Positions 22,342-31,039 of a stretch of DNA of 46,644 nt are shown here, piece after piece. Within the stretch, counting starts at the first letter, position 1; the number at the start of each line of letters is the position of its first letter. The stretch lies in NCBI GenBank assembly GCA_051532055.1, contig JAOPTX010000064.1, forward strand, positions 1-46,644, read 5' to 3'. This stretch comes from Fibrobacterales bacterium (lineage in GTDB: Bacteria; Fibrobacterota; Fibrobacteria; Fibrobacterales; JAOPTW01). The notes beneath the pieces were generated by a model, which worked only from the letters and a program-made list of their open reading frames with translations, was not told the DNA's origin and made no database searches. Both the position numbers and the translations under genes were made by a program.

Positions 22342-22797
22342 ATGACATTAGCAGCTCGTTTAAAAGATGTTAACATTCTCCAGGATTTAGATGAACAAGA
22401 GTTGATCTATATCTCTGATATTTGTAAAGTTAAACACTTTGATTCTGGTCAAATAATATTTGAAGAAGGTTCCAATGGCGATGAACTCTATTTTATTTTA
22501 GATGGTTCAGTTGGTCTCGAAATTTCAAAATATGATGGATCAGGATTTAATAAATTTTGTACTCTTCCAACAAATGAAGTGGTTGGTGACTTGGCATTTA
22601 TCGATGGCGTATCTCGGAGCTCGAGGGCAGTATCTCTTGGGTTACAGGATATAGCATTTGTAGGGCGAGCTGACCTGTACCAATGTTTTGATAACAATCC
22701 ACGCGTTGGGTATCTTGTTATGAAACGACTCTGTGAGCTCATATCAAAGAGATTGCGCCTTACCAATAATATGGTTAAAAGTTCCTTAGATTTATAG
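22342..22797 (+). CDS. Stand-alone cyclic-nucleotide-binding domain protein
   Basis: IFEEGSNGDELYFILDGSV, GDLAFIDGVSRSSRA; no HTH. Confidence 0.88.
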   Translation: MTLAARLKDVNILQDLDEQELIYISDICKVKHFDSGQIIFEEGSNGDELYFILDGSVGLEISKYDGSGFNKFCTLPTNEVVGDLAFIDGVSRSSRAVSLGLQDIAFVGRADLYQCFDNNPRVGYLVMKRLCELISKRLRLTNNMVKSSLDL

Positions 22798-22987: not shown

Positions 22988-24391
22988 ATGAAACCAGCTG
23001 ACGTAATTAAATTAGCCCAAGAAAATGATGTTAAATTTGTTGACCTTATGTTTGGTGATATGTTTGGATCACTGCAACATTTTACACTCCCTATTGGCGA
23101 CTTAAACGAAGACCTTTTTGTTGAGGGTGCAGCTTTTGATGGTTCATCTATTAGAGGATGGAAATCAATTGATAAATCTGATATGCTTATGATGCCCGAT
23201 CCTACCTCTGCATTCATTGATCCCTTCTCAAAATTTTCTACGGTATGCTTGTTCTGTACTATACTTGAACCTCGCACTGGAGCATACTACGATAGAGATC
23301 CTCGTTCAATCGCTGCTAAAGCCGTAGAATATCTTACTGGCCAAGGAATTGGTGATACTGCATTTTTTGGACCAGAACCAGAGTTTTTTATTTTTGATTC
23401 TGTTCGATTTGTTTCTGAGCCAAATTCAGCATTTTACGCTATTGAGTCTGAAGAGTCACCATGGTCAACTGCGGATGAAGGATCATTGGGACACACAATC
23501 CCATGGAAAGGTGGATACTCGCCGGTCTCCCCTAATGACGCCCTTGCTGATTTACGTTGTGAAATTGCACTTAATATGGAATCAATGGGGATTACTACTG
23601 AAGTACACCACCACGAAGTAGGCACCGCTGGACAGTGTGAAGTTGGAACTCGATTTGGAACTATTATTGCTGCAGCCGATCAAGTTCACAAGCTTAAGTA
23701 TGCTGTAAAAAATACCGCTGCGGCGTATGGAAAATCTGCGACATTTATGCCTAAACCACTCTTTGGGGATAATGGAAACGGTATGCATGTACACACATCT
23801 ATCCGTAAAGGCGATGTAAATATATTTGCAGGTGATGGTTATGCAAACATGTCACAAGAAGCACTCTGGGCTATTGGTGGGATCCTTAAACATGGCCGTT
23901 CTATTCAAGCTTTTACCAACCCATCAGTTAATTCATATAGAAGATTGGTTCCTGGATATGAAGCTCCTGTTACTCTTGCATACTCAGCAACGAATCGCTC
24001 TGCCTCTATTCGCATCCCTCATGTGAATGCAGATATTGCACGACGCTTTGAGTTTCGTTGTCCTGATGCATCTGGCTCGCCCTATCTTGCATTCTCTGCT
24101 ATTCTTATGGCGATGATTGATGGTATTAAAAATCAAATTGATCCAGGCGAAGCAATGGATAAAAACATATATGATCTTCCTGTTGAAGAGCTTGCAAAAA
24201 TGACTGCAACATGTGCTTCATTAGAAGAGGCTCTTACTGAACTCGAAGGAGATATGGCGTGGCTCGTAGCTGGTGATGTATTCACCGCTGATATGATTGA
24301 GGCTTATATTGAGTATAAACGTGAGAATGAAATTCTTCCAATGAAACTTCGCCCAAATCCCTTAGAATTTGAACTCTACTATAGCTGCTAA
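22988..24391 (+). CDS. glnA: Glutamine synthetase type I (adenylylatable, GSI-beta-like)
   Basis: FDGSSI, GPEPEFF, HHHEV, TFMPKP..GDNGNGMH, NSYRRLVPGYEAP; KNIYDLP carries the adenylylation-site Tyr. Confidence 0.97.
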   Translation: MKPADVIKLAQENDVKFVDLMFGDMFGSLQHFTLPIGDLNEDLFVEGAAFDGSSIRGWKSIDKSDMLMMPDPTSAFIDPFSKFSTVCLFCTILEPRTGAYYDRDPRSIAAKAVEYLTGQGIGDTAFFGPEPEFFIFDSVRFVSEPNSAFYAIESEESPWSTADEGSLGHTIPWKGGYSPVSPNDALADLRCEIALNMESMGITTEVHHHEVGTAGQCEVGTRFGTIIAAADQVHKLKYAVKNTAAAYGKSATFMPKPLFGDNGNGMHVHTSIRKGDVNIFAGDGYANMSQEALWAIGGILKHGRSIQAFTNPSVNSYRRLVPGYEAPVTLAYSATNRSASIRIPHVNADIARRFEFRCPDASGSPYLAFSAILMAMIDGIKNQIDPGEAMDKNIYDLPVEELAKMTATCASLEEALTELEGDMAWLVAGDVFTADMIEAYIEYKRENEILPMKLRPNPLEFELYYSC

Positions 24392-24474: not shown

Positions 24475-26328
24475 CTATTGTATAGGGATTGAAAGGGTAA
24501 ACTCGGCCCCCTTCCCTATTCCGGCACTATGAACCGTTAAATCACCATCCATTTCACGTGCATAGTTAGCACAAGAGTGAAGCCCAAAACCATGGCCATC
24601 TTCTTTAGTGGTAAATCCATGAGTAAATATTTGAGTTAAGTTCTTTGTATCGATTCCGATACCATTGTCTCTAATGCGTATCAGTAGAGAGCCTCCTGAT
24701 TGTTGACTAGTAAGGCTCAGAACTTTATACGAATCAGGAGAATGTTTAAGAGCGTCAATAGCATTATTTAGAATATTAATAAGGATATGAATAACCTTAC
24801 TTTTTTGAAGTTCTATGGTAGGGGTTTGCGCAAAAACAGTCTTAATTTCGATACCACACTCTTCAATAGTATTTGCTACAATATGGAGTACATCAAGTAA
24901 GATTTGGTCAATATGTGAGTTTTCGAGTAAATAGGCATGCTTAGCGTAGTCTTGTTGGCTTTTTATGACTTCAACTGTTGCTTTTGTTTTCTCTTTCATT
25001 CTATCGAGTTCAATACCTAACTGCTCAACTTTATCAGTGTACAATGAGTCAAGTTCTATGAGATATTGGAAAAGTTTATCACCTTGAGGCGAATCTATAA
25101 ATTGATGAAGTGTTCCCGCTCCCTTCTCTTTTTGAATGAGGTCATTCACTAAGTGGATTTTTGAAAAATCCCCATTGAGTATATTTTGTTCTATGAGTTC
25201 AGCAGAAATAAATACACTGGTAAGAATATTGCCGACATTGTGTAGTGCTCCCGTAGCTACTTCAGCCATACCTGCTTTATGAGCTTGTTGTACCAGTTCT
25301 TCTTGTGTGCTTAAGAGTTGTTTGGTTTTTTCATTTACTTTTATTTCGAGATTTCTTCGATATTCTTCAAGTTCTGTCTCATTATTTTTTCGATTATCTA
25401 TGTCTTGTATAATAGCCATGATTGCTTTTTTATTATGGAGGTCAATAATTTTGAGTGACACCAATGACCAAAATGGTGAGCCATCCATCCTTTTTGAGCG
25501 CCACTCAAGTTGCACTTCATCTTGATTTTTAAATTTGGATATGGTCTCAGACATTTTTTCTAAAGTATACCCTTCTTCGACCGCTGAAAAAGTATCAGAA
25601 CCTTCGGTCATAAATTGTTCTTTTGTGCAGCCAAACATCTTTAAAATAGACTGATTACAATCGATAACGTTATATGTTTCTGTCTCATGGATCATAATTC
25701 CGGTAGCAGAGGAATTGAAGAGTGCTTTATAATTTTGTTCTTGGTCTCGAGTAGTAAGATATGCTTGATTGAGGGTGTGAGTAATGAACCGTGTAATTGA
25801 AGCGACTATTATAAAAGAGACCGGTACTACGGTAATATCGACAATATCAGAGTGCTCACTCATCCGATTGGAAATCAGGTCTTTAAATTCCAAGATCCCA
25901 AGAATCAGTAAATACAATGAATTCAATCCAATGACTACAATAAATGAGGTACGAGAACAGAAAAGGCTTACACAGAGGAGGCCTATTGGAAATAAAATAA
26001 CTGCAGTGTCATGAATACCATCATTGAGAAATAGAGCAGTATCAATAATAGACAATAAAAAAAGTGATAAAAGAAATACAGCAATTCCGAAAAATCCCTT
26101 TGAATTGAGCCATCGCATTGTAAATAAAAACGGAAGAGTGATAGCTATAAGTAAAGATGTTGTCGAGGACAAATCGCCGTCTGATGCGGTTGCTGCCCAA
26201 ACTATAATAGAGCCTACAATGAGAATTTTTAAAAGGAGTTCAAGCCTGAAATGATTCAAAATCAGGTCTAAATTGGGATTGCCAAGTTTTCTAAATAAGG
26301 TGTCAATTTTTTGTAACATATGCTCCAT
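24475..26328 (-). CDS. Membrane-bound PAS-domain sensor histidine kinase
   Basis: About 6 TM, PAS/PAC (RMDGSPFW...IIQDI), H-box ALHNVGN, NILNNA, DNGIGI, FTTK..GHGFGL; start uncertain (26319-26352). Confidence 0.9.
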   Translation of the reverse strand: MEHMLQKIDTLFRKLGNPNLDLILNHFRLELLLKILIVGSIIVWAATASDGDLSSTTSLLIAITLPFLFTMRWLNSKGFFGIAVFLLSLFLLSIIDTALFLNDGIHDTAVILFPIGLLCVSLFCSRTSFIVVIGLNSLYLLILGILEFKDLISNRMSEHSDIVDITVVPVSFIIVASITRFITHTLNQAYLTTRDQEQNYKALFNSSATGIMIHETETYNVIDCNQSILKMFGCTKEQFMTEGSDTFSAVEEGYTLEKMSETISKFKNQDEVQLEWRSKRMDGSPFWSLVSLKIIDLHNKKAIMAIIQDIDNRKNNETELEEYRRNLEIKVNEKTKQLLSTQEELVQQAHKAGMAEVATGALHNVGNILTSVFISAELIEQNILNGDFSKIHLVNDLIQKEKGAGTLHQFIDSPQGDKLFQYLIELDSLYTDKVEQLGIELDRMKEKTKATVEVIKSQQDYAKHAYLLENSHIDQILLDVLHIVANTIEECGIEIKTVFAQTPTIELQKSKVIHILINILNNAIDALKHSPDSYKVLSLTSQQSGGSLLIRIRDNGIGIDTKNLTQIFTHGFTTKEDGHGFGLHSCANYAREMDGDLTVHSAGIGKGAEFTLSIPIQ

Positions 26329-26371
26329 ATAGTGTATCATTAAATAGAACAATAATCTAGAACAACTCTCT

Positions 26372-29300
26372 TTAGAAGTGCCTCAGTGGAAAAAGTTGGT
26401 TTGATATTTTAGTTATAACAATTCGAGTTTTTGTATAATCTTCAATGAAACGCTCTCTAATATGGTGCTTGTGTATATCCCGATAATTAAGTTTAAAGGC
26501 TATAAGCCTGAGTTCTTCATCTGATTCTGGTAAAAGATGCAGTTGCTGGAGACCATTTATTTGTAAGGTATGCTCTATTGCCCTTAAAAACGAGTAATGC
26601 TTAGAAAGTTCAACACATTCAGTATCAGTAATGATTGAATGTTGGCTCAGTAAAAAAAGAGCTTTTAGTGTGTTTCCTGTAACAATTTCAGGATTTTGTT
26701 TCCCATGAATAACTTGAAGACGTTGTACGTAGAATTCTATAGTACGAATTCCACCAGGACCATTTTTAACCTCTCGTTCTAACTGAGAATCTTTGGTGAG
26801 GCCATCAAGCACAATATATCTGAGTTTTTCCATACTCGATTGAATAGAAGAGATTCGTGATGGGTCAAAAAGGAACCCTTGAATCTCTTCGATGAGAACA
26901 GCTCCAGCAGAGATATTTCCGCAGAGTGGAGCAGCTTTTAACCAGATTTGTAGTTCCCATCCTTGAGCATCATCACTATAATAGTCAATATAATGATTGC
27001 GAGTTGCAATCATTGCCCCTTGTGACCCATAGGGCCTTAGGTTGGTATCAACCCTAAAGAGTTGTCCAAAGCGTGATGTTTCGTGTAGGGCCTTAATAAA
27101 TCGGTTGTTGACTTTTTCGAGCAACGTACGGTCATCTCTACTTAAGTGAGGATCAACGACAACAAAGAGAATATCTATATCGGATGAGTAGTTAAGTTCA
27201 TGCCCCCCAAGTTTGCCCATTGCGATAATTACTTGCCGATTGGATAAGTGTTGGTAGCCCATAGTTTTGAAAATATACTGATAGATTATGTTACATATGG
27301 CGTATGAAAGGTCGGATATCTCCGAGACAATTTGACCGAGAGAGGTGTTGAGATAGCTATCTCTTAATGAAATTCTGACATATTCGTCATTTCGGTACTT
27401 CCGGATACGGTTTAAGAATGCGTGATGATCTTTTTGATATTGAGCACATTTAGATTCAATATCCTTAGTAAACTGATCGTACGATTTTTTTACTTTCAAA
27501 TTCCCTGAATCAATTAATTTATGCAATATCGCTGGGTCATTAGCATAGGCATTCGCTAAAAAATCACTCTGAGCAAATATGTGAAGGACCATTTCAAGAT
27601 ATGAGGTATCATTTGAAATAGCTAAAATGAGCTGGTTTACATCCTCAGTAGTATTTTTTAAAAGGTATTCAATGTTTATCGAAATTTTTTCTGCAGCAGG
27701 AGAACGAATTAAATATTTCTCTATGAGGGCAAAAAAACTGAGGAGTAAAGGGGCCTGATCTTTATGCTCTTCGAGTATACGCTTGAGAATGGCGAGGGTT
27801 TTATTTTGGGTTGAGAGCTCTAAACGTTGTAAAATGAGCTCTATTTTCAGTGGACTCAGTTCTTCGGTAACGGCGTCAACAAGGCCAGGTAAATACTCTT
27901 CTGTGGTATAAACAGTGCTATTGAATATTGAATCATAAAAGAGGGCGTTGTTATGACGGTAATATTCTATATCACTCTGAAGCGTACTGTAATGAGATTC
28001 TATTTTCCGATATTTCATTCGACGTGACAAAAAAAGAAATTCAGAACTTTCCTCTGAAGGGAGTTCGAGATCTTTAGCATTACCTGAGACAATTCTTAAA
28101 TTATTAATAAGACGATGAAAAAATGAGTACCCATTAAAAAGTTTTTCATACAGCGCAGGAGAAATTAACTCTTTATTTAAGAGAATGGTCATCACACCAG
28201 GTATATTAGTATAACGGAGTTCGGGTATTGATTTTCCGTGAAATACTTGAAGGTATTGGATAGGATATTCAATATCTACCAATCCACCACGAGATAGTTT
28301 TGCATTAAAAAAATGATGATTTGTGAGATGTTGGATCTGTTTTTGTCTCAATTTGTAAAGTGGTTGACTCTCAATATGATAGCTTTCATAAAGAATACTA
28401 TCGCGTATGCTGAGTATCTCTTTTTGGAAGGAGTCATCACGGGCAACAATTCTGGCTTTGGTGAGGGCTAGTTTTTCATAAGAAAGTGTTGATTCCTTCT
28501 CGAGATAATACTCCTTCCATCGTCTAAGACTACAAGCAAGTGCGCCTTTTTCCCCATCAGGACGTAATCGAAGGTCAAGGTCAAACATTCCCTCTTTTTT
28601 GGCTTTATAGCTTCGGGTAAAAAGTTCTATCATTCTGTTGAAGAATTCTTGGTTGGAAGCTGGAGTCCGTCCTCCAAAACACTGTTGATTATCTTTGTAG
28701 ATAAATACCAGTTCGAGATCCGAAGCATACCCCATTTCAATAGAACCATATTTCCCGAGACCCATGAATGCATAGGGGCATGCCTGTTCGTTATAACGTG
28801 GTGAACCATAACGCTCTTTGGTTTTTTCGTAACAACAATCAAGCATCGATGAAATAATAACATCGGCGAGTTGAGATAACTTTTGAGAAAAGATAGAGAA
28901 ATTAACTCTATTAAGTATTTGATGTGAAAGTTCTAACCTAAGTAATTCATTGTCTTTAAATAGGTTGATGCGAGAAATCTTTACATCAAAGTCAAGATCC
29001 GCACTGAGAGTGTTCCCCAACTCCATAGTTAGGGTCTCTTTTGTTTTTACACGTTGTAATTCTTTAACGTTCTTAAATAGAGGAAGAAGGTTCTCTTGTT
29101 GGTTTTTGGCAAAATCCTCCCATACGCTGTTTCCTGAACCAAAGAGCTTGGCCATATGCTCAAGAATTTCTTCAGAATTATTTTTGAGATATTCAAAGTC
29201 ATTTTTATCGTCCTGCAGATATTTTTTGAGAAAAGAATAAAAGTTTTGAATGGAACCACTGTAGTCAGAGGCTTGAGGGAGATAGGTAAAAAACTGTTTG

Positions 29301-30082
29301 ATAAGGGCGACTGAAACCTTTATCTTTTGAAGTTCATTTTGCTGGTTGATGGCATGGTTGTTTTTATCGGTAAAGACAATAAGGTCATCTACGGTGTTAT
29401 GTTTAGTCTGCAAGACCACTGATTTAATAGTGAGTTGCAAAAGATTAAGTGCATAGGATAGTGTGTAGATGAAAAAAGGAGTATCTTGCCCCAATACCTT
29501 TAAGTAGGTGTTGGTATCGTCAAAGTCTATGCTAATGTCAAGAGGTTCCACGATAGGAGTCCTAGTGACTTCTGTATTAGTGATAAACTGTCCTACAAGG
29601 GTGTTTACCCGATGACGTACTGCAACCATGCCACTTTTTTTATAGAGTGCTAGAAAGTCATTTAAATGAAGAGATATAAGCTCTTGAATTACCTCTGGAG
29701 ATTGTGTTGTTGTAACTTGGAACCAATTAAATACTTTTGGTTTATCACGATAGAAATCTGTAGCTAAATTATCAGAACATGGACCATAGGTAAAACCTCG
29801 AGCGGATCCAATGTTGAACCCTGAAACGGCTAAAGTACCTGTGGCAATGGAAAAGAATCCTTGAAAATCATATGCTATGAGAGTGATTTCGACAGTACCA
29901 GGAATTGTTGTGTGTGTAGAACAGAGAAAAGGCTGGTTGGTTAGTTGGGTAAGAGCGGTAAGATGTTTCTTTATAGTAGAATCATCAAAAAAGGCAAAGT
30001 AATCACTTTGCAGGCGCTCCCAATGATGTATCCAGATGTCTCCGAATGTGCTCTGAAATGATTTAAATAGTGTGCTTCTCAT
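26372..30082 (-). CDS. glnE: Glutamine synthetase adenylyltransferase/adenylyl-removing enzyme with N-terminal GlnD-like ACT domains
   Basis: Two nucleotidyltransferase motifs (GLGKYG..EMGYASDLE; MGKLGGHELNYSSDID), two DxxLRP.G motifs, two GG..xIE motifs. Confidence 0.9.
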   Translation of the reverse strand: MRSTLFKSFQSTFGDIWIHHWERLQSDYFAFFDDSTIKKHLTALTQLTNQPFLCSTHTTIPGTVEITLIAYDFQGFFSIATGTLAVSGFNIGSARGFTYGPCSDNLATDFYRDKPKVFNWFQVTTTQSPEVIQELISLHLNDFLALYKKSGMVAVRHRVNTLVGQFITNTEVTRTPIVEPLDISIDFDDTNTYLKVLGQDTPFFIYTLSYALNLLQLTIKSVVLQTKHNTVDDLIVFTDKNNHAINQQNELQKIKVSVALIKQFFTYLPQASDYSGSIQNFYSFLKKYLQDDKNDFEYLKNNSEEILEHMAKLFGSGNSVWEDFAKNQQENLLPLFKNVKELQRVKTKETLTMELGNTLSADLDFDVKISRINLFKDNELLRLELSHQILNRVNFSIFSQKLSQLADVIISSMLDCCYEKTKERYGSPRYNEQACPYAFMGLGKYGSIEMGYASDLELVFIYKDNQQCFGGRTPASNQEFFNRMIELFTRSYKAKKEGMFDLDLRLRPDGEKGALACSLRRWKEYYLEKESTLSYEKLALTKARIVARDDSFQKEILSIRDSILYESYHIESQPLYKLRQKQIQHLTNHHFFNAKLSRGGLVDIEYPIQYLQVFHGKSIPELRYTNIPGVMTILLNKELISPALYEKLFNGYSFFHRLINNLRIVSGNAKDLELPSEESSEFLFLSRRMKYRKIESHYSTLQSDIEYYRHNNALFYDSIFNSTVYTTEEYLPGLVDAVTEELSPLKIELILQRLELSTQNKTLAILKRILEEHKDQAPLLLSFFALIEKYLIRSPAAEKISINIEYLLKNTTEDVNQLILAISNDTSYLEMVLHIFAQSDFLANAYANDPAILHKLIDSGNLKVKKSYDQFTKDIESKCAQYQKDHHAFLNRIRKYRNDEYVRISLRDSYLNTSLGQIVSEISDLSYAICNIIYQYIFKTMGYQHLSNRQVIIAMGKLGGHELNYSSDIDILFVVVDPHLSRDDRTLLEKVNNRFIKALHETSRFGQLFRVDTNLRPYGSQGAMIATRNHYIDYYSDDAQGWELQIWLKAAPLCGNISAGAVLIEEIQGFLFDPSRISSIQSSMEKLRYIVLDGLTKDSQLEREVKNGPGGIRTIEFYVQRLQVIHGKQNPEIVTGNTLKALFLLSQHSIITDTECVELSKHYSFLRAIEHTLQINGLQQLHLLPESDEELRLIAFKLNYRDIHKHHIRERFIEDYTKTRIVITKISNQLFPLRHF

Positions 30083-30149: not shown

Positions 30150-30851
30150 CTATTTATTAAGCATTTGTGCTATAACACCTAGAGACATCGCTTTGGTGTG
30201 CTTTTTACCATTGATGTAGAATGAAGGAGTTCCGCGAACGCCCACTGATGACCCAAGAGCCATATCTGCTTTTATAACAGCATTAGATGCTGCATTGAGA
30301 ACCATATCTTTTTTGAATTGCTCCATATTTAATCCAATTTTTTTAGCAACATCAATAAATGTAGCTTCAGAAAGGTTTTTGTATTGAGGAGCAAGAGCAT
30401 TTCTGTATTCAAAGAATTTACCTTGGTTATGAGCAGCCATTGACGCAGCATGCGCAGCAGGTGCTTTTTTGTGGAAACTGAGTGGAAAATGCTTGAAGAC
30501 AAGACGAACCTGTTCAGGATATTTTTCCATTATACGTTGTACTTGTTCTGTTGCACGTGCACAATATGGGCATTGAAAGTCAGAAAACTCAACGATGGTA
30601 ATTTTAGGATCTTTAGCTCCCATAACAGGGCTGGTTCCTTCAGGAATTACGTGAGCAGTCTCTTCTGCCATTTTTTGCTGTTTGATACTTGCAAGGCTTG
30701 CACCTTTGCTTTTCAAATACCATTTAATAAGCTCGAGCTCTTCTTGGATTTTAGCAACATCCCCATTAGATGAACTTTTTTTGTCCCCTTCAGCCTGACA
30801 AGCCATAATTGAGACGAGTATGATGGCTGCGCTAAATATGAGTTTTTTCAT
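30150..30851 (-). CDS. DsbA-family thioredoxin-fold lipoprotein
   Basis: IMAC lipobox, EFSDFQCPYC, KHFPL, GVRGTPSF; start MKKL. Confidence 0.9.
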   Translation of the reverse strand: MKKLIFSAAIILVSIMACQAEGDKKSSSNGDVAKIQEELELIKWYLKSKGASLASIKQQKMAEETAHVIPEGTSPVMGAKDPKITIVEFSDFQCPYCARATEQVQRIMEKYPEQVRLVFKHFPLSFHKKAPAAHAASMAAHNQGKFFEYRNALAPQYKNLSEATFIDVAKKIGLNMEQFKKDMVLNAASNAVIKADMALGSSVGVRGTPSFYINGKKHTKAMSLGVIAQMLNK

Positions 30852-31039
30852 TGTTGTACCTTTTAACATCCCTGCTTTTGGGGTGCGAATTATAAATTAT
30901 CCCTTTAATATAACAAGTTAGCACGTTTTTGAATAGCAAAAGTAGAGTTTTTTAGTATTTCACTTCACTTGTTCTTAGATCTAGAAATAGTTATATTTCG
31001 TAGAAAATAACCTAAATAACAAAGAAAAAGGAACAATCA

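Follow-up and report, generated by a model that had tools for sequence, protein, structure and literature searches.

A permuted GlnE with an N-terminal GlnD-type ACT pair in a Fibrobacterales bacterium

The glnE locus and the layout of its product

The window analyzed here, which is the whole 46,644-nucleotide (nt) stretch of contig JAOPTX010000064.1 from a Fibrobacterales bacterium (assembly GCA_051532055.1), carries on its minus strand the only GlnE-family gene found in the whole genome. Adenylylation of glutamine synthetase (GS) is a textbook cascade, and in its switching model the N-terminal adenylyl-removing (AR) half of GlnE signals via a central regulatory (R) region to the C-terminal adenylyl-transferring (AT) half. 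In the protein described here the two halves almost certainly stand in the opposite order, behind a pair of ACT domains of the GlnD type. The features concerned are as follows.

26372..30082, minus strand: permuted glnE open reading frame (ORF), 1236 amino acids (aa), laid out as ACT-ACT, putative helical remnant, AT-type half and AR-type half
29288..30037, minus strand: GlnD-type C-terminal module of pre-ACT helices and two ACT domains, aa ~16-265
29051..29287, minus strand: helical segment after the ACT pair, aa ~266-344, like the helices preceding the AR catalytic core
27944..29050, minus strand: AT-type nucleotidyltransferase half, aa 345-713, with G451, D455-x-E457, D503, R507, E536, K595 and E605
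27893..27943, minus strand: short new AT-to-AR junction, aa ~714-730, linking the ends that form the C- and N-termini of AR-ACT-ACT-AT proteins
26387..27892, minus strand: AR-type half, aa ~731-1232, with N964, D968-x-D970, R1010, D1012, R1113, E1170 and Q1174
28712..28738, minus strand: EMGYASDLE motif, aa 449-457, first (AT-type) half
aa 500-510, minus strand: FDLDLRLRPDG motif, first half
aa 592-611, minus strand: FNAKLSRGG..QYL motif, first half
27173..27220, minus strand: MGKLGGHELNYSSDID motif, aa 955-970, second (AR-type) half
aa 1009-1019, minus strand: FRVDTNLRPYG motif, second half
aa 1105-1127, minus strand: VKNGPGG..IHG motif, second half
22988..24391, plus strand: glnA, type I glutamine synthetase and likely substrate, TIGR00653 603 bits

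The original prediction, made from the sequence, had placed six GlnE motifs in a gene spanning 26372-29000. All six mapped to exact positions within the single minus-strand ORF, but that span was too short: the ORF starts at 30082, and the ~360 N-terminal aa left out hold the GlnD-type ACT pair, with ACT domains at about aa 63-150 and 182-266, which had gone unseen. A Pfam scan assigned two stretches each to PF03710 (GlnE) and PF08335 (GlnD_UR_UTase) and found no HD domain in the protein. Its two GlnE nucleotidyltransferase domains are homologous to each other, and each has a helical domain after it; one half is of AR type and the other of AT type. Its scores fell below the curated cut-offs of PRK11072, PRK14108 and PRK14109 (396, 382 and 341 bits against 625, 487 and 724).

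Like canonical GlnE (Escherichia coli, 946 aa), the protein thus comprises two nucleotidyltransferase halves of the same fold with helical domains, and its gene is linked to that of a type I GS in which the target tyrosine is intact. Unlike canonical GlnE, it has reversed halves, an N-terminal GlnD-type ACT pair, D-x-E in place of D-x-D in the AT-type half, and 1236 aa; its order is ACT-ACT, AT, AR rather than AR, central regulatory region, AT. Structure prediction, which had been suggested as a check, gave a confident AlphaFold2 (AF2) model of aa 37-1236 (predicted local distance difference test score (pLDDT) 86.1, predicted template modeling score (pTM) 0.75) whose folds match 1v4a and 3k7d. 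The only Foldseek matches of this model at E <1e-10 were the two E. coli GlnE domains (E 2e-16 and 3e-15).

Identity and order of the two halves

Profile mapping revealed that aa 340-725 correspond to the C-terminal part of GlnE models (PRK11072 590-917 of 946, PRK14108 613-937 of 986, PRK14109 639-967 of 1010) and aa 726-1236 to the N-terminal part (PRK11072 24-417, PRK14108 23-448, PRK14109 184-499). The best Protein Data Bank (PDB) sequence match of the AR-type half was 1v4a; by their PDB titles, 1v4a is the N-terminal domain and 3k7d the C-terminal adenylylation domain of E. coli GlnE. According to the accessible text of 10.64898/2026.09.02.748916, the N-terminal domain of canonical GlnE is adenylyl-removing and the C-terminal domain adenylyl-transferring. 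Pairwise scores against E. coli alone could not tell the halves apart (the first scored 104 bits against AR and 90 against AT), which counts against a reversed order; assignment by such scoring was dropped as uninformative, and half trees were therefore built.

We constructed a FastTree phylogeny of 138 halves, drawn from 23 canonical systems, 14 AR-first, 25 permuted, and 7 split, and a quick IQ-TREE run with a mixture model on a 42-row subset. A single branch of the 42-row tree (support 95) divided the canonical halves in two. On one side the first half lay with 8 of the 10 C-terminal ones, among them E. coli AT; on the other the second half lay with all 10 N-terminal ones, and the remaining two canonical C-terminal halves (Actinomycetota and Armatimonadota) also fell there. 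In the approximately unbiased (AU) test on all 42 rows, grouping the first halves with N halves was rejected (p 8.7e-30), whereas grouping the second halves with N halves was not (p 0.66). The unpermuted grouping was also rejected when 12 rows were omitted (30 rows, p 4e-44).

Five alignment columns reach 100% conservation across the 23 canonical N halves (in E. coli, N169, R221, R324, E381, and Q385), and the second half carries all of them as N964, R1010, R1113, E1170, and Q1174. The first half has none of the five and shows Gly451 where E. coli AT has Gly697. Eight Planctomycetota loci (L087, L098, L101, L110, L111, L117, L121, and L124) have canonical order with Asn at this E. coli AT Gly position (E-x-N-Y-H-S-D), so the Gly residue alone is no universal AT marker. 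At L107, L108, L116, and L091 (Actinomycetota and Armatimonadota) the C-terminal half grouped with N-terminal halves, in Actinomycetota with the N half of its own protein; this placement could reflect re-duplication, gene conversion, or a tree artefact.

Profile mapping, half trees, AU tests, and diagnostic residues thus agree on the AT-then-AR order of the original prediction, and the trees with reference AR and AT halves that it had called for put the N-proximal half with AT and the C-terminal half with AR. We regard the permutation as real with near certainty. The ambiguous E. coli scores, and the noise in half trees seen in the few canonical C-terminal halves that group with N halves, would suit an assembly artefact or mislabelled halves in an ordinary AR-AT GlnE with an extra N-terminal domain. 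Such an explanation is exceedingly improbable: the AU tests reject it, all five N-half residues lie in the second half and none in the first, and the same order is found in independent genomes.

Two other genomes of the order, the genus included, have a colinear gene with no stops, at 82% and 38% identity (3 of 41 genomes matched). Among the best 120 of 534 homologues, 46 were ACT-AT-AR and 74 AR-ACT-ACT-AT. Within Fibrobacterota, 49 of 251 genomes matched PF03710, and 30 loci of the phylum comprised 28 with AT then AR in one frame, 1 in the same order with a frame break, and 1 cut by a contig end; none of these 30 loci held a GlnE of canonical order. The survey of domain order proposed earlier therefore showed the permuted arrangement to be recurrent, and the misassembly that would have undone it was not seen, the order being intact in independent genomes. 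One genome based on unpublished data (G195) is included in the 30 loci and in the sets of 33 class genomes and 45 phylum genomes used below; its removal lowers numerator and denominator by one in each case and leaves the outcome unchanged.

Three sequencing runs were found, two of them from the probable source sample, all as contigs; the run holding this DNA is a marine metagenome, and the organism is thus most likely marine. Contigs from the source sample show no joint inside glnE, and one of its RNA contigs runs over 27754-28054, through the junction, with no differences; neither constitutes independent support, and none of the listed pieces covers the whole gene. RNA contigs overlap glnA and three segments of glnE, and show neither expression level nor transcript. 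In the 46 permuted homologues, the gaps between profile ends at the AT-AR junction measured 73-91 aa, and ~60-70 aa of this length correspond to the AR half's natural N-terminus.

Several loci showed peculiarities of their own. Frame breaks, through assembly error or a real split, divide the otherwise permuted gene at L023 (genome G086) and the otherwise AR-first gene at L131 (genome G503). Six loci of one Fibrobacterota genus group (L026, L027, L032, L036, L038, and L061) have a divergent AT-type half, with GAGSD or GSGSD for GYASD and lower profile scores, and glnA often lies on another contig. L054 and L040 share an identical 671-aa frame and domain coordinates; one record title names Bifidobacteriales although the genome is placed in the class of the window's organism, which suggests a mislabelled title. 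In a large family of the order (f4), 113 genomes gave no GlnE match, and a strong type I glnA match, below the cut-off, was obtained in 4 of 144; enzyme and substrate are thus absent together in the genomes searched.

The ACT-bearing subfamily and the origin of the permuted form

We classified 72 loci from named genomes, taken from the best 80 of at least 609 matches. They comprised 11 full permuted genes (Fibrobacterota 2, Spirochaetota 7, Lentisphaerae 1, Planctomycetota 1) plus 2 partial ones, 14 of the AR-ACT-ACT-AT form (Planctomycetota and Chloroflexota), 14 with two divergent genes, ACT-ACT-AT and AR (Nitrospirota), 30 canonical, and 1 where just the ACT-ACT-AT gene is seen, next to the end of its contig. 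The name Thermodesulfobacteriota is attached to two permuted homologues. A profile built on the ACT region matched 424 cluster representatives at E up to 1e-30, and the best 150 of these included 46 permuted, 40 AR-first, and 26 free-standing ACT-ACT-AT proteins, with 38 fragments or unclassified; the same profile matched 26 of 251 Spirochaetota genomes, some of them AR-first. In the 14 split loci of Nitrospirota (L058-L081 and L123), glnA, PII, or glnD lies nearby in several, and many other Nitrospirota have a canonical GlnE of ~1050 aa. A putative fourth architecture, two Nitrospirota frames of ~1300 aa, was rejected: these are canonical genes with an open frame upstream.

The AR-ACT-ACT-AT GlnE of Planctomycetota, Chloroflexota, and some Spirochaetota and the two-gene form of Nitrospirales (ACT-ACT-AT plus a divergent AR gene) are built from the same three blocks with the same Gly/DxE and Asn/DxD signatures, and the permuted form differs from both only in block order and linkage. 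The description of the enzyme as permuted therefore holds as to its reversed order, but the parent form is the three-block AR-ACT-ACT-AT protein and not the E. coli type. Since these blocks are found in both orders and also in trans, switching in this subfamily probably does not depend on the covalent AR-R-AT order.

The unusual metal motif follows the subfamily. All 120 proteins, in both orders, combine Gly and DxE in the ACT-linked half with Asn and DxD in the other half, whereas canonical GlnE has DxD in both. The original prediction was right that the AT-type half has DxE (D455-x-E457), but the motif has no tie to the permutation; its presence in both block orders makes it a mark of the ACT-bearing subfamily. 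Other active-site columns of this half are 96-100% conserved (G443, K444, S454, D455, D503, R507, E536, K595, and E605). KNTase and LinB belong to the same fold family (weak fold matches) and have Asp-x-Glu metal ligands; according to the accessible text of PMC4631478, KNTase Asp50/Glu52 and LinB Asp40/Glu42 bind Mg2+ in active enzymes. Unlike GlnE, these two act on small-molecule substrates with a single catalytic domain, and they serve as precedent only for an active DxE. On this precedent and the conserved catalytic columns, the AT-type half is probably active.

A degenerate or retargeted DxE half, serving as a scaffold or acting on another target such as PII and leaving only the DxD half to act on GS, could explain why the change at a metal ligand is fixed (DxD in 23/23 canonical C-terminal halves, DxE in 46/46 ACT-linked halves) and why the ACT-linked halves form their own long branch; the module also carries the sensor of GlnD, which itself acts on PII. 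We consider this improbable in view of the conservation of the remaining active-site columns, the Mg2+-binding Asp-x-Glu pairs of KNTase and LinB, the persistence of the ACT-ACT-AT module as its own gene beside glnA in Nitrospirales, and the lack of Tyr51 in the PII proteins of the genome.

Phylogenetic analysis placed the permuted proteins on one side of a branch both in the ACT-ACT-AT tree (46 rows, support 97) and in the AR tree (69 rows, support 88), with the same two permuted subgroups in each. Because of this agreement, the pattern fits a permuted form that arose once and was then inherited as a unit. In a FastTree phylogeny of 117 rows, a branch with support 98 had all 56 permuted rows and six free-standing rows on one side and all 32 AR-first rows and 23 free-standing rows on the other. 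The module and AR trees are unrooted, the check in contigs covered the free-standing rows of Nitrospirales only, and some free-standing ACT-ACT-AT rows could be truncated genes.

These trees favor an often-free module that was joined to AR on either side: the ACT-ACT-AT module would have formed once, existed as a free gene in several lineages, and become joined to AR in front or behind. The tandem duplication of an AR-ACT-ACT-AT gene with loss of both ends, with no fission or re-fusion, seems a rather unlikely route. It would agree with the free trees, where the permuted AR halves adjoin most AR-first AR halves (weak support, 90 and 64), and with the Nitrospirales ACT-ACT-AT module lying on the AR-first side and not as sister to the permuted form; free-standing ACT-ACT-AT proteins, however, are frequent and lie dispersed over both sides of the tree (26 of the best 150), and the permuted N-terminus matches the start of the split form. 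A point against the joining of a free module is that, in the free trees, the AR halves of split systems fall beside canonical ones with weak support, yet a clade of split with permuted AR halves was not rejected (AU p 0.74). As a direct intermediate, the Nitrospirales split genes are unsupported by the module trees, and the AR tree does not exclude them.

The ACT pair and a possible glutamine-gated switch

The neighboring glnA, 2 kb downstream of glnE and convergent with it, encodes a GS whose Tyr395 (nt 24170-24172) aligns with Tyr398 of translated E. coli GlnA (55% identity, MDKNIYDLP loop), making it a likely cognate type I GS with the target tyrosine. A PAS histidine kinase gene lies between the two genes, and this order is kept in a genome of the same genus. 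Counted from the listed coordinates, glnA stands beside glnE on the same contig in 20 of 33 GlnE-bearing genomes of the class, and the target tyrosine is kept in all nine GlnA proteins beside ACT-bearing glnE loci. The conserved catalytic residues suggest that both halves are active, and the permuted GlnE is likely to adenylylate and de-adenylylate the neighboring GS.

Sequence and structure comparisons traced the N-terminal module to GlnD. Residues 19-258 matched the C-terminal part of GlnD models (NCBIfam), and the TIGR01693 match covered positions 622-844 (E 1.1e-12), the best stretch of a full-length score of 64 bits against a cut-off of 519. HHalign aligned aa 16-265 with the C-terminal 260 aa of six GlnD proteins (probability 99.8, 211 columns), including the helices before the first ACT domain. 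An AF2 model of aa 16-350 (pLDDT 86.5, pTM 0.83) had its best fold matches in the ACT regions of aspartate kinase (Z 12.4, root-mean-square deviation (rmsd) 4.2, 165 aligned) and then threonine dehydratase (Z 9.4, rmsd 3.0, 135 aligned). Like GlnD, the protein therefore has pre-ACT helices and a homologous tandem ACT pair, which is C-terminal in GlnD; unlike GlnD, it has neither a GlnD-type uridylyltransferase nor an HD domain, and the pair is N-terminal, ahead of a GlnE-type AT half. The helices after the second ACT domain are homologous to those before the AR core (profile comparison probability 94.3, 91 columns), and set directly against the single E. coli central region they gave no significant match; we infer that aa ~266-344 are a remnant of the central R region. 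For regulation, the ACT pair that had been overlooked probably matters more than the block order.

Searches by hidden Markov model (HMM) and tblastn did not find GlnD in this genome, and Tyr51 (E. coli position) is present in none of its six PII-family proteins. The suggestion that PII-dependent switching may work differently here gains support from these two absences. GlnD was likewise not found in 14 of 45 GlnE-bearing Fibrobacterota genomes or in 8 of 9 genomes with the permuted form outside the phylum. Among 34 genomes, for which completeness was not given, GlnD occurred in 3 of the 11 with the permuted form, 7 of the 11 with the AR-first form, and 10 of the 12 with split genes; two of the three GlnD-positive permuted genomes also belong to the phylum sample.

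According to the accessible text of PMC11190351, which cites Zhang 2010, GlnD requires its ACT domains for its glutamine response. With neither GlnD nor Tyr51 found here, direct sensing by the ACT pair is the simplest reading, and we moderately favor a bifunctional GS adenylylation switch whose ACT pair would sense glutamine itself and not through uridylylated PII. In nitrogen excess, the ACT pair would bind glutamine and turn on the adjacent AT half, and GS would be switched off; when glutamine falls, the AR half would prevail.

Several observations weigh against such direct sensing. The genome is 94% complete, so glnD could have been missed. GlnD is present in 31 of the 45 Fibrobacterota genomes with GlnE at E <1e-20, in 7/7 AR-first Planctomycetota, and in 10/12 split Nitrospirales. 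As a general rule, replacement of GlnD by the ACT pair was rejected, GlnD being present in most sampled GlnE-bearing genomes; since the two often co-occur, the pair is no simple replacement. The accessible text of 10.64898/2026.09.02.748916 further states that canonical AT halves sense glutamine without ACT domains, so the pair may sense something else. GlnE control also differs among phyla.

The same permuted bifunctional enzyme might accordingly be governed by the glutamine site of its AT half together with unmodified PII responding to 2-oxoglutarate, with the ACT pair binding another amino acid or metabolite or serving as a docking or structural module. The co-occurrence of GlnD, the unaided glutamine sensing of canonical AT halves and variable regulation among phyla, and the three amt-linked PII genes of the genome would all agree with this, as would the lower conservation of the ACT pair than of the catalytic halves, with about half the score in many planctomycete homologues. 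We nevertheless judge it somewhat unlikely, because the pair is specifically the GlnD C-terminal module with its preceding helices, is attached to the AT half in all three architectures, and belongs to a GlnE kept in several lineages where no GlnD was found. Direct glutamine sensing by the ACT pair therefore remains our preferred reading for this genome. Extending it to a one-protein, ligand-gated AMPylase that short-circuits the GlnD-PII-GlnE cascade in at least seven phyla, with AR before, after, or separate, is more tentative and falls somewhat short of an even chance.

Other genes of the locus and genome were also noted. The membrane PAS histidine kinase gene (24475-26352, minus strand) starts 19 nt after the glnE stop and may be co-transcribed with glnE and nitrogen-related. 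A stand-alone cyclic nucleotide monophosphate (cNMP)-binding protein (22342-22797, plus strand) is encoded just upstream of glnA and a DsbA-like thioredoxin (30150-30869, minus strand) just upstream of glnE. All three genes are kept in the same-genus genome. Elsewhere, nifH-like sequence lies at two contig ends (G000:C14:2-622 and G000:C109:6178-7234), and the C109 piece is followed by two tandem PII-family genes, presumably resembling a NifI pair; nitrogen fixation by the organism is possible. G000:C8 and C94 carry three amt-PII gene pairs plus a fourth amt, with all PII proteins lacking Tyr51. C8 also holds, ~3 kb from one amt, a second and divergent frame of the GS family, 762 aa long.

The literature search found no paper on a permuted, AR-first, or split ACT-bearing GlnE, although subscription journals and supplements lay outside it and a prior mention is possible. 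The string "permut" is absent from the accessible text of 10.64898/2026.09.02.748916, and in the accessible literature on GlnE and circular permutation the term was found only for the KEN domain. Database names of the ACT-bearing forms are generic (glutamine synthetase adenylyltransferase, ACT domain-containing protein).

The protein probably works like GlnE and departs from its canonical architecture; the chemistry itself is not new. Found in two orders and also as two genes, its blocks offer a natural series for testing whether covalent order matters. Should the ACT pair gate the AT half, this would explain fast GS shut-off without GlnD or a uridylylatable PII, and the candidate beneficiaries would be the marine Fibrobacteria-class genome studied here, which also has nifH-like sequence, several Spirochaetota, and Anaerolineae. 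The enzyme would then offer both a compact, glutamine-gated switch for GS and a less complex setting for finding the glutamine site of GlnD-type ACT pairs.

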